Shown one piece after another: positions 43,501 to 49,500 of a DNA stretch of 51,026 nucleotides. Location of the stretch: positions 1 to 51,026 of the IMG/VR virus record IMGVR_UViG_2671180890_000005, one strand, 5' to 3'. The stretch is from a virus. Its lineage: Duplodnaviria > Heunggongvirae > Uroviricota > Caudoviricetes. Position 1 is the first letter of the stretch. Each line of letters starts with the position of its first letter. A program made the position numbers.

Positions 43501-46500
43501 AAGGACGATTGGCGCAACTGCGACTCTTGGCGTATCAATGGGGCTTGAGGCTGGTTTCGGTGCAATGATGCGCTTGTATGAGTCCAAAGCAGCAAGGAAT
43601 GCTCTCTTACGTCTGGCAAACACTAAAGCTGGAACGCCAGCCTATGAAAGAGCGCTGAATAACGCTGCGAATGCCATCAGGCCGCTGCTTGCCACTGAGG
43701 CAACACAGCAGTAACGTATGGGAAATTGGATTCAATCGCTAACATTTTCTTTTTACTTTTCCAACAAAAGCTTTGGTTGAATCCATATTTCCATAACCGG
43801 AAATGGTTTTTGACATTAAAACTGTTCCAGTAGGATGTATTACCCATGAGTCGATAACGCGTTGAGTTTCGCCATTCGCGCCGATTCCTATGATGGAGTT
43901 TTTAGACAATACTTTGTAAGCCATGCCGCCCGCATCTGTCCCAGAATATGTGATGCTAGCATCTTCACCGCTTGTCTTAATGATGAATGTTCCACTAAAA
44001 CCATCTTCTTCCGGATGGAAATTATTTCGTTCTGAATAGCTTATTCCGCGCATATCTCCAACGACCCAGCACTCTGCTGTAGCCCCAAAAGATATGAATA
44101 AGAACATAGCAGCAAGAAATTGCTTCACACCAACCTCCTTAGTTTTGTGCAGGATACCAGATGATAATGTGTAGTTGGAGTAGCGCGGTTGTAATGCAAG
44201 CATTTTGTTTTGGTTTTATGCTTGCTTGTATGTGTGTACAGTGCATATAATGCAAGCATACATCACAACAAAGGTGCTTGCATTATGACTGAAAAGAAAA
44301 GTGGCGAAGGGAAAGCTAAGGGCGGGATCGCTCGCGCAAAGTCGCTGACTAAAGAGCAGCGTTCTGAAATAGCAAAGAAAGCAGCTGCTGCAAGATGGAA
44401 AAGTAAGATTCTCAGGGCAACTCATCGTGGTAACTTTTTAGATGATTTTGGCATTGATGCTGAATGTTATGTACTGGATGACGAGTCGAAAACTGTCGTT
44501 GTTACGAAAACTGGATTATCTCAGTTGCTAGGGATTGGTGAACATGCCAGGGATTTAGATCAACTGCTTGGCGCTCAGTATATGAGCAAATACCGAGATC
44601 TAGAATTGCAGCGAAAAATGGAAAATCCCTATAAATTTCAACTTACTTCGAAGTCTAAAACCGTTCATCAAGCGTTAGGTTATGACATTACAGCAATTGT
44701 TGATATTGGTAGGGCACTAATAGAAGCCAAAGATAATGACGATCTACCACAATCACGGTTAAAGGCAGCCGCCGCAGCACAGAGACTTATTAATGCCTCC
44801 GCTAAGGCGGGAATTAAGGGGGTTGCGTATGCGCTTGCTGGTTATCGTCCAGAAGTTCAGGCTGTCATTGACGAGTTCAAAGCGTTTGTTCGTGAAGAGG
44901 CTCGTCAATATGAAAAGGAATTTCCAGATGAGCTATACGAGGAGTGGTATCGACTGTACGGCCTGAATAGGCCAGAGAAAGGACGGCCTATTCGTTTTGG
45001 GCAGCTAACCAACATGCAGATATACACCCCGCTAGCAAAGAGTAAAGGTAAAATCCTTGAACAAATTAGAGCCAGCCGAGACGAGAACGGAAAACAATCT
45101 GATAAGTTGCATCTGTTCCTTTCTGAAATTGGTGTCAAGGCTTTGCGTCAGCATATCGGTAAGCTTCTTGGTGTCGCAGCGATGAGTGAGACAAGAGAAG
45201 AATACGAAAAAGGAATAGAAAAGGTTTTCGGAAGAATGAAACCAGAAATCTAATTATGAAACCCACCGTCAGGTGGGTTTTTTGTACAAATCCTTCAGCG
45301 TATCAAACACCATCTTCTTAACAAGTTCAGACTGCTCATCAGCGATGCGTTCCGCATCGTCTCGATAGCCTGAAATTTTGGATGGCTTTGATACAGCATC
45401 AGTCACTATCTGAACTAATTCTGAATTAAGAGAGCGGCCATTGGATTTGGCTCGCTGTTTTAGTTTTTCCTTTAATTCGTAAGGTAGCCGCAGATTAAAT
45501 TGCGGGTCATCTCTTCCCATTCTTGATGCCTCACTTTTGTAAGTGGATCGGCATCATATGATCTACTGGTTATATCCACAATAAGACCACTGTGGTCTCA
45601 ATGACGCATTGCCGTAGCCATGCTGCGGTGATTCCTTGTATCTGGAGCAAATTAAATGACAGACATTACAGCCAATGTGATCGTATCAATGCCATCGCAA
45701 CTCTTCACTATGGCGCGTTCTTTTAAAGCCGTAGCCAATGGCAAAATTTATATCGGTAAAATTGACACTGACCCTGTAAATCCTGAAAACCAGATTCAGG
45801 TTTATGTGGAGAACGAAGACGGCTCTCACGCTCCTGTTTCGCAACCAATAATCATTAACGCTGCTGGATATCCGGTATATAACGGACAGATTGCCAAATT
45901 CGTTACCGTGCAAGGCCATTCTATGGCTGTTTATGATGCGTATGGTGCACAGCAGTTCTATTTTCCCAATGTGCTGAAGTATGACCCTGATCAACTACGG
46001 CAGCAATTAGAAGACCCAGATGGAGCGAATAAATACCCAAAACTTCAGATAGCAAGATGGAGAGACAGTTATGATGTAAGAGGTTGGGGGGCTATTGGTG
46101 ATGGTGTTCATGATGATACATCAGCTCTATCAGAATTACTTTCTGTTGCAACAGGTGGTGAAAAGATAGATGGGCGAGGGCTTACTTTTAAAGTATCAAC
46201 TCTTCCAGATGTCAGTCGATTTAAAAATGCTCGTTTTTTATTTGAGAGAATACCGGGTCAGCCTCTTTTTTATGCTTCTGAAGATTTTATCCAGGGAGAG
46301 TTATTTAAAATTACAGATACACCGTGGTACAACGCCTGGACGCAGGATAAAACGTTTGTATATGACAATGTCATCTATGCGCCTTTTATGGCTGGAGACC
46401 GCCATGGTGTAAATAACCTCCATGTTGCATGGGTTCGCTCAGGAGATGACGGGAAGACCTGGACAACGCCGGAATGGCTTACAGATTTACATGAAAACTA

Positions 46501-49500
46501 TCCCACAGTTAACTATCACTGCATGAGTATGGGGGTTGTCAGAAATCGCCTTTTTGCTGTAATTGAGACGCGGACCGTGAGCGGAAATAAACTGCAGGTT
46601 GCAGAGTTGTGGGATCGCCCAATGAGTCGCAGCCTTCGCGTTTATGGTGGTATAACGAAAGCAGCAAATCAGCAAGTCGCTTATATTCGCATTACTGATC
46701 ACGGATTATTTGCTGGTGATTTTGTCAACTTCTCAAACTCTGGTGTTACAGGTGTTACCGGGAATATGACGGTGACTACTGTTATTGATAAAAATACTTT
46801 TACAGTTACGACGCAAAATACCCAGGATGTGGATCAGAATAACGAGGGTAGATACTGGAGTTTTGGTACATCATTTCACTCGTCACCATGGAGAAAAACC
46901 AGTCTTGGAACTATTCCTTCTTTTGTTGACGGAAGCACTCCTGTTACTGAGATTCACAGTTTTGCGACGATTAGCGATAACAGTTTTGCTGTTGGCTACC
47001 ATAATGGTGATATTGGTCCACGCGAGCTTGGGATACTCTATTTCTCTGATGCTTTCGGTTCTCCTGGTAGCTTTGTTCGCAGACGCATACCTGCAGAATA
47101 TGAGGCGAATGCATCTGAGCCATGTGTAAAATATTATGATGGCATTCTGTATCTGACGACCAGGGGGACATTAAGTACTCAACCCGGTAGTTCATTGCAC
47201 AGAAGCTCTGATTTAGGTACATCATGGAATTCTCTTCGCTTCCCAAATAATGTTCATCACTCAAACCTTCCTTTTGCCAAAGTTGGCGATGAGCTGATTA
47301 TTTTTGGCAGTGAGCGCGCATTTGGTGAGTGGGAAGGAGGAGAACCTGATAACCGTTATGCAGGAAACTATCCAAGAACATTTATGACCAGAGTTAACGT
47401 CAATGAGTGGAGTCTGGATAATGTAGAGTGGGTTAATGTTACTGATCAGATTTATCAGGGCGGAATAGTTAACTCTGCGGTTGGTGTTGGTTCAGTTTGT
47501 ATCAAAGACAACTGGCTGTACTACATTTTCGGTGGGGAAGACTTTCTAAACCCATGGAGCATAGGGGATAACAACAGAAAATATCCTTATGTTCACGATG
47601 GTCACCCGGCTGATTTGTATTGTTTCAGGGTGAAAATTAAACAGGAAGAATTTGTTTCAAGGGATTTTGTCTACGGAGCCACTCCTAACAGAACGCTTCC
47701 TACTTTTATGTCGACGTCAGGCGTGAGGACGGTTCCTGTACCCGTTGATTTCACAGATGATGTTGCCGTCCAGTCACTGACTGTCCATGCAGGTACATCA
47801 GGACAAGTTCGCGCGGAAGTCAAATTTGAGGGTAATTACGCCATTATTGCGAAGAAAGTACCGTCTGATGATGTTACCGCTCAGAGATTAATCGTTAGCG
47901 GCGGTGAAACAACGTCTTCAGCAGATGGTGCAATGATAACGTTGCATGGTTCCGGAAGCAGTACTCCACGTCGCGCGGTATATAACGCACTCGAACATCT
48001 TTTTGAGAACGGAGATGTTAAACCTTATCTTGATAATGTAAATGCTCTTGGTGGTCCGGGAAACAGGTTCTCGATAGTTTATCTTGGCTCCAATCCTGTG
48101 GTTACCAGTGACGGAACATTAAAGACAGAGCCGGTCTCTCCTGACGAAACATTGCTGGATGCCTGGGGTGACGTCAGGTATATCGCTTATAAATGGCTGA
48201 ACGCTGTCGCTATAAAGGGGGAAGAAGGGGCGAGGATACATCATGGTGTAATCGCGCAGCAACTTCGTGATGTTCTTATTTCTCACGGACTCATGGAAGA
48301 AGAAAGCACAACATGCCGCTATGCCTTTCTTTGCTATGACGATTATCCCGCAGTATATGATGACGTCATTACTGGCCAAAGGGAAATGCCGCTGACTGAT
48401 AATGACGGGAGCATCATTGTTGATGAGGATGATAATCCAGTGATGGTAATGGAAGACATCATTGAGCGCGTTGAAATAACGCCAGCAGGATCTAGATGGG
48501 GGGTCAGACCTGATCTCTTATTCTATATCGAGGCAGCATGGCAGCGCAGAGAAATAGAAAGAATAAAAGCTAGGTTAGACTTAATAGAAGGGAAGCACTA
48601 AATGTTTCGTTGGCGTCAAAAATATGAACTGATCACATAAAGAAGTAAGTACATTGGCAAAAAACATTGACGTCAACGAAATTAAATATAAAAATTTAAA
48701 TGCTTTTTAATGACAAGAAAAGTAACTAGTGGTAAAATAACGTAGGATACTAATATGTTAAGACTCAAGACTCAAGACTCAAGACTCAAGACTCAAGACT
48801 CAAGACTCAAGACTCAAGACTCAAGACTCAAGACTCAAGACTCAAGACTCAAGACTCAAGACTCAAGACTCAAGACTCAAGACTCAAGACTCAAGACTCA
48901 AGACTCAAGACTCAAGACTCAAGACTCAAGACTCAAGACTCAAGACTCAAGACTCAAGACTCAAGACTCAAGACTCAAGACTCGTTTTCCGTTGATGATA
49001 ATGGGTCAGGTAATGTTTTTGTATGTGGAGATCTTGTAAATAGCAAAGAGAATAAAGTTCAGTTCAATGGAAACAATAACAAACTTATTATAGAAGATGA
49101 TGTTGAGTGTCGATGGCTTACCGTAATATTTAGGGGTGATAATAATTACGTAAGAATACATAAAAACAGTAAGATTAAAGGTGATATTGTCGCAACAAAA
49201 GGTTCAAAAGTTATTATCGGTAGAAGAACGACAATAGGTGCAGGTTTTGAAGTCGTCACTGATAAGTGCAATGTTACAATTGGCCATGACTGCATGATAG
49301 CAAGAGATGTTATTTTGCGTGCATCAGATGGGCATCCTATATTTGATATTCATAGCAAAAAAAGGATTAATTGGGCAAAAGATATCATTATATCTAGTTA
49401 CGTATGGGTAGGGAGAAATGTCTCTATAATGAAAGGAGTATCTGTTGGAAGCGGATCTGTCATTGGGTATGGGAGTATTGTAACTAAAGATGTGCCATCT

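Follow-up and report, generated by a model that had tools for sequence, protein, structure and literature searches.

Introduction

The tailspike of phage CUS-3, in which an N-terminus of the P22, Sf6, and HK620 type is joined to a catalytic part of the K1F type, is a published textbook case of tailspike module exchange, with a P22 anchor set on an endosialidase body, and the P22, Sf6, and HK620 tailspikes have catalytic domains that differ completely from the CUS-3 endosialidase (PMC5380687). The CUS-3 record (CP000711) annotates the gene, siaK1, as 'endosialidase tailspike protein' with endo-alpha-sialidase activity (evidence code IDA, citing PMID 16689790), and the phage itself plates on the K1 strain EV36 (PMC10883804). 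The sources named for this tailspike are Stummeyer et al. 2006 (PMID 16689790) and King et al. 2007 (PMID 17601779), and facts on CUS-3 are used here as given in the GenBank annotation and in open papers that cite them. The present analysis concerns a tailspike gene in a stretch of 51,026 nucleotides (nt), hereafter the window, that covers positions 1 to 51,026 of the IMG/VR virus record IMGVR_UViG_2671180890_000005 (Caudoviricetes). The open reading frame (ORF) at 45656..48601 almost certainly encodes the endosialidase tailspike of a temperate, P22-like podovirus of the CUS-3 type that is integrated at the argW site.

The gene is the already known and characterised CUS-3 endosialidase tailspike and holds no new biology. 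It marks the element out as a K1-specific prophage of the CUS-3 type and draws attention to the adjoining phase-variable gene neuO, which here reads as OFF. Beyond this, its sole use lies in annotation and in the cataloguing of how endosialidase modules are shared among P22-like, epsilon15-like (Uetakevirus), T7-like, and SP6-like phages.

Domain architecture of the tailspike

The tailspike is encoded by a single, uninterrupted ORF on the plus strand, the end coordinate of which includes the stop codon, and it begins with an ATG that has a GGAG 8 nt upstream. The product of 981 amino acids (aa) has the same length as CUS-3 SiaK1 (CP000711, ABQ88383.1), with which it shares 975 of 981 residues, and the two genes are 99.4% identical in DNA over their full length. 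The gene and its parts are as follows.

45656..48601, plus strand: complete tailspike gene, 981 codons and a stop; equivalent of siaK1 of phage CUS-3 by DNA and protein match to CP000711
45656..45994, plus strand: P22-type head-binding (particle-attachment) domain, aa 1-113; Pfam Head_binding PF09008, profile positions 1-113 of 113, E 6.9e-66
45995..46090, plus strand: linker, aa 114-145, where homology switches from P22-like tailspikes to endosialidases, placed by match boundaries
46091..46291, plus strand: endosialidase N-terminal extension, aa 146-212; Pfam PF12218 End_N_terminal, E 8.8e-37
46292..47641, plus strand: six-bladed beta-propeller catalytic domain, aa 213-662; Pfam PF12217 End_beta_propel, E 1.1e-233; PDB 1v0e and 3gvl, E = 0
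46625..46873, plus strand: beta-barrel domain nested within the propeller, aa 324-406; Pfam PF12195 End_beta_barrel, E 1.2e-46
47642..48106, plus strand: stalk ('tail spike') domain, aa 663-817, ending at the maturation site ...NPVVT817; Pfam PF12219 End_tail_spike, E 1.4e-77
48107..48598, plus strand: C-terminal intramolecular chaperone/autoproteolysis domain, aa 818-981; Pfam PF13884 Peptidase_S74 and PDB 3gw6

All six Pfam modules are matched over their full length and five of them are endosialidase domains, with the propeller model scoring 775 bits where the cut-off is 24 bits, so that none of the matches is due to chance. The Peptidase_S74 'Chaperone of endosialidase' match itself covers aa 818-878 (E 2.8e-10). 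The solved endosialidase structures are 61-68% identical to the tailspike: the endoNF structures 1v0e and 3gvl match aa 145-817 with E = 0, and the endoNF fragment 3gw6, which extends to the C-terminus, matches aa 698-979 with E 3.1e-93. An NCBIfam scan of the protein returned no family match. Phage endosialidases (endo-N-acetylneuraminidases) form family GH58 of the CAZy classification.

At the other end of the protein, the head-binding domain is homologous to those of P22 gp9 and of the Sf6 and HK620 tailspikes; the solved N-domains of all three in the PDB match with E values of 1e-44 to 1e-64, and 85 of the 113 residues are identical to P22 gp9 (a hand count from the alignment). The similarity to gp9 is confined to this N-terminal part, with none in the body and no significant similarity in the alignment past about aa 115. 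Matches to P22-like tailspikes stop between aa 113 and 169 and matches to phage endosialidases begin between aa 114 and 134; within the linker, 18 of 32 residues are identical to endoNF, and from aa ~134-145 the endosialidase similarity is continuous to the C-terminus. Where a P22-type tailspike has a right-handed parallel beta-helix as its receptor-binding body, the body here is an endosialidase propeller, and the P22-type part of the protein is an attachment module only.

The first-pass annotation of the window had assigned the first ~110 residues to the P22 head-binding domain, noted two Asp-box motifs, likened the C-terminus to self-cleaving chaperone domains, and called the body endosialidase-like. 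The first three of these assignments agree with the matches above and with the alignments below, and the fourth can be put more strongly, as the protein is a full endosialidase. The possibility that the Asp-boxes were the sole endosialidase similarity is rejected, since the similarity runs unbroken for about 840 residues.

Catalytic and self-cleavage residues

Both Asp-boxes (S-x-D-x-G-x-x-W) fall inside the propeller domain at conserved propeller positions. The first, SGDDGKTW, occupies aa 262-269 (nt 46439-46462) and the second, SSDLGTSW, aa 517-524 (nt 47204-47227); they are in exact register with the SGDDGQTW and SRDIGQTW motifs of endoNF and endoNE, at positions 362 and 610 of the former and 152 and 400 of the latter.

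The active-site triad of endoNF consists of E581, R596, and R647 (PMC2955717), and a further study describes H350, R549, E581, R596, and R647 as key catalytic residues that are highly intolerant to substitution (PMC12632334). All five are conserved in the propeller domain of the tailspike, as H250, R456, E488, R503, and R554. The stalk (aa 663-817) aligns with endoNF 757-910, up to the end of the mature gp17* in the K1F record. This record places the boundary between gp17* and the C-terminal domain between T910 and S911, and the counterpart in the tailspike is T817|S818. Two residues of the chaperone domain, S818 (nt 48107-48109) and K823, line up with S911 and K916 of endoNF and do not vary among the four aligned sequences; by this alignment they are the counterparts of the Ser-Lys autocleavage dyad described for endosialidase chaperone domains (PMC3742443).

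Relatives of the endosialidase body

A four-way alignment gave the identities to the two K1 endosialidases that, along with the CUS-3 tailspike, the first-pass annotation had singled out for comparison. EndoNF, gp17 of phage K1F (AM084414; PDB 1v0e, 3gvl, and 3gw6), is 61% identical overall and 55-78% per domain, and has the same body and C-terminal chaperone domain. The anchors of the two proteins differ, as that of endoNF is composed of a T7 tail-fibre domain and a Tail_spike_N domain, whereas the window tailspike has the P22 head-binding domain. The tailspike also has a seven-residue insertion relative to endoNF (FVDGSTP, aa 422-428), which is likewise present in CUS-3; together with G310 and M760, discussed below, this is a minor difference. 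EndoNE, gp47 of phage K1E (AM084415), is 56% identical and shares the propeller, barrel, stalk, and Peptidase_S74 modules; its chaperone domain is much shorter and more divergent (25% identity). Unlike the window tailspike, endoNE is without a large N-terminal anchor and is held on a separate adapter protein by a short peptide at its N-terminus (PMC5380687).

Much closer matches come from temperate podoviruses. The tail fibre of the Uetakevirus vB_EcoP_ZX5 (MW722083 1803-4922, QTH80017.1), a phage of another genus, is 99.5% identical in DNA over gene nt 522-2914 and, at the protein level, 96% identical across aa 134-980, with the same endosialidase body and chaperone modules; this protein of 1039 aa starts with an unrelated N-terminal anchor of ~190 aa that has no Pfam match. 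Phage phiv205-1 matches the tailspike gene from nt 208 onward at 99.7% identity. Given the near-identical body matches in phiv205-1 and ZX5, the body and chaperone domain circulate as a near-unchanged module among temperate podoviruses with differing anchors, and the ZX5 match suggests that the K1-specific module has recently passed from one genus to another. Such circulation fits the known picture and is nothing new in kind. Among complete Escherichia coli genomes (n = 5426), 1187 have a match to the tailspike gene and 180 have a match with at least 80% coverage, the latter including UTI89, IHE3034, NU14, and APEC O2:K1 strains.

Comparison with CUS-3 and prophage context

Six substitutions separate the tailspike from SiaK1 (P43T, A59V, P121T, A207V, F724L, and G767R), and the two genes differ at 18 nucleotides that are very unevenly spread. 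Fifteen of the 18 lie in gene nt 1-361 (45656-46016), which encode the head-binding domain, and three in the remaining 2585 nt (46017-48601), a distribution which suggests that the anchor domain has recombined with that of another P22-like phage.

Outside of the gene, CUS-3 identity sets in abruptly at 45612, which is 44 nt upstream of the tailspike ATG, directly after the ant moron, and within the annotated 'bsq1' boundary sequence. From there to the end of the window (45612-51026), the arm made up of tailspike, neuO, and integrase is 99.4-100% identical to CUS-3 in DNA, reaching 100% over 48851-51026 in a blastn comparison against the CUS-3 locus. CUS-3 has the same neuO and integrase downstream of its tailspike, and it has the same att core. 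The remainder of the prophage is a lambdoid/P22-like mosaic, in which CUS-3 covers 23% of window positions 1-25000 and 52% of positions 25001-50000 at 96-98% identity. The arm and the argW att core thus agree with CUS-3, and collinear nucleotide identity does not extend over the whole genome. The idea that the window is CUS-3 itself is rejected, as identity of at least 99.4% holds only from nt 45612 onward; the prophage, a mosaic, is a relative with the CUS-3 arm. The features of this element that surround the tailspike are listed here.

10598..10613, plus strand: attR core GGAATCGAACCTGCAA, left end of the prophage; exact match to the CUS-3 attL core
43739-44203, minus strand: ORF of 154 aa in the ant moron with a hydrophobic N-terminus; no Pfam match
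about 44285-45253: P63C-domain protein in the ant moron
45269-45520, minus strand: Mnt-like Arc/Mnt repressor in the ant moron
48755..49629, plus strand: neuO, polysialate O-acetyltransferase; PDB 3jqy NeuO, E 2e-160
49869..51026, minus strand: prophage integrase; Pfam integrase domains

The att core matches the annotated CUS-3 attL core exactly and occurs once in the window, so the prophage spans from ~10.6 kb to a point past the right end of the window. No tRNA gene was predicted within the window at the attachment site; by analogy with E. coli Ecol_276, an intact argW would lie just past the right end. Upstream of the tailspike and on the same strand, Pfam identifies a set of P22-like virion genes (P22_portal, P22_CoatProtein, P22_Tail-4, Phage_stabilise for gp10, P22_gp7, and Inj_translocase for gp20). 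The late operon runs in the P22-like order of terminase, portal, scaffold, coat, gp4, gp10, gp7, gp20, and an ORF of 613 aa (41873-43714), and ends with the tailspike. The 613-aa ORF stands at the position of gp16, and its counterpart in related prophages is annotated as a DNA transfer or gp16-family ejection protein. The candidate for the gp26 needle (38570-39271) has no Pfam match. The ant moron, which is unrelated to the ant/mnt moron of CUS-3, lies between the gp16-position ORF and the tailspike (43739-45611), and in P22-like podoviruses the tailspike gene occupies this same place, where it follows the ant moron and closes the late operon. Promoter-like sites around the tailspike gene were no commoner than in shuffled sequence, and the terminator-like matches within the ORF look like chance.

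It is possible, if not quite probable, that the CUS-3 tailspike-neuO-integrase arm is a mobile cassette, which would have been moved onto another P22-like backbone through recombination in the short boundary sequence that precedes the tailspike, and again in the head-binding domain or linker. The backbone in this case would be one that adjoins a P4-like satellite, and the lineage would lie outside the classical ST95 K1 clones. Should this be true, K1 tropism and capsule O-acetylation would pass from one phage genus or E. coli lineage to another as a recent mobile cassette.

The idea that a resident argW prophage of the Ecol_276 type had only its tailspike swapped is rejected. Ecol_276 (NZ_CP018953) has an identical left flank, and its argW site is occupied by another P22-like prophage; despite the 100% identity of the flank, this prophage and that of the window share only scattered segments at 89-99% identity. 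The Ecol_276 prophage, seen at positions 3379-6822 of the locus compared, encodes a tailspike of 725 aa and is without neuO.

Phase state of neuO and the host capsule

The product of neuO O-acetylates the phage receptor, and the gene is ON only when its repeat number is a multiple of three (PMC3046976). The repeat tract of neuO in the window (48760-48983, identified with TRF) starts 2 nt past the ATG, holds 32 perfect AAGACTC heptanucleotides, compared to 19 copies in the CUS-3 record, and encodes RLKTQDS heptads. As 32 is not a multiple of three, the gene reads as phase OFF: translated in silico, the 32-copy tract places neuO out of frame and translation stops after 94 codons, while 30 or 33 copies would restore the full length. 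The OFF phase occurs in 65.6% of neuO-carrying K1 genomes (PMC13001214).

In the first-pass annotation, the tailspike was taken to predict a phage specific for the K1 (polysialic acid) capsule and a host that carries it. The specificity is borne out by what is known of CUS-3, which grows on a K1 strain and whose siaK1 has a recorded activity, and would extend to the window prophage through its similarity to CUS-3. That the source strain was a K1 host is a strong inference, made stronger because neuO adjoins the tailspike, and the strain was very likely a K1-encapsulated extraintestinal pathogenic E. coli.

Proposed function and alternative explanations

How the domains are laid out, which residues are conserved, the near-identical match to CUS-3 siaK1, and the presence of virion genes of the P22-like kind are all direct observations, and nothing found contradicts an explanation of the ORF as a CUS-3-type endosialidase tailspike. 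By analogy with homologues that have been solved and assayed, this allele would trimerise, be cleaved, and be enzymatically active. The tailspike is expected to fold as a homotrimer, with the C-terminal chaperone domain (aa 818-981) driving the folding of the trimeric stalk and then removing itself through Ser818/Lys823-dependent autoproteolysis between T817 and S818. The head-binding domain (aa 1-113) would dock the mature spike onto a P22-type tail formed by the gp4 and gp10 homologues encoded upstream, and the propeller would depolymerise alpha-2,8 polysialic acid, which would allow the virion to tunnel through the K1 capsule to the outer membrane.

Several points weigh against this explanation. 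The window is without a kps/neu capsule locus, the allele carries six substitutions relative to the CUS-3 protein with annotated activity, and the exact prophage mosaic is found in none of the complete E. coli genomes of the collection searched, which match no more than ~81% of the right-hand 25 kb. Relative to endoNF, Q853, a residue of the stalk sialic-acid site, is replaced by Met760, and K410 is replaced by Gly310. K410 is described as reported to be essential in vitro (PMC12632334).

Since these two replacements lie at positions linked to substrate contacts, and since the phage carries a gene for the O-acetylation of its own receptor, the specificity of the enzyme may be thought to have shifted, for example to O-acetylated polysialic acid or to another sialic-acid polymer over the plain K1 capsule. 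Such a shift is very improbable. Both G310 and M760 are also found in CUS-3, a phage that plates on the K1 strain EV36 with a tailspike annotated as having directly assayed endo-alpha-sialidase activity, and none of the six differences from CUS-3 is at a mapped active-site position, with G767 being common to the ZX5 homologue.

The absence of an exact match among complete genomes bears on a different explanation, in which the gene is a relic within a defective prophage, intact in sequence and without a working spike, and is retained as a passenger beside neuO. The mosaic nature of the prophage, of which complete genomes match at most about 81% over the right-hand 25 kb, would fit a relic, as would neuO in phase OFF and the many E. 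coli genomes with only a partial gene (1187 matched versus 180 at 80% coverage or more). This explanation is nonetheless unlikely. The tailspike ORF is complete and free of frameshifts and has all of its catalytic and cleavage residues, and the ORFs for terminase, portal, scaffold, coat, gp4, gp10, gp7, and gp20 are intact and matched by Pfam over their full length. Additionally, the integrase and attR are both present, and for neuO being OFF is both normal and reversible. An endosialidase tailspike in a prophage of the CUS-3 type is preferred over both alternatives.

Island at the left flank

Positions 1-10597 of the window belong to a separate integrative island, similar to a P4-like satellite, that directly adjoins the attR of the prophage. 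This left flank matches E. coli Ecol_276 at 100% identity and ST131 strains at 99.9%. The genes recognised in the island are as follows.

884-1888: P2-family capsid-like protein
1976-2566: Icd-like protein
3199-5886: primase with Zn-ribbon, Toprim, and DUF927 domains
7121-8002: sce7726 family gene, with a PADLOC candidate match
8024-8974: sce7725 family gene, without a PADLOC candidate match
8954-10177, minus strand: island integrase

The sce7726/sce7725 pair has a low guanine-cytosine content (0.31-0.34) and may be defence cargo, with the PADLOC candidate match applying to the sce7726 protein only.

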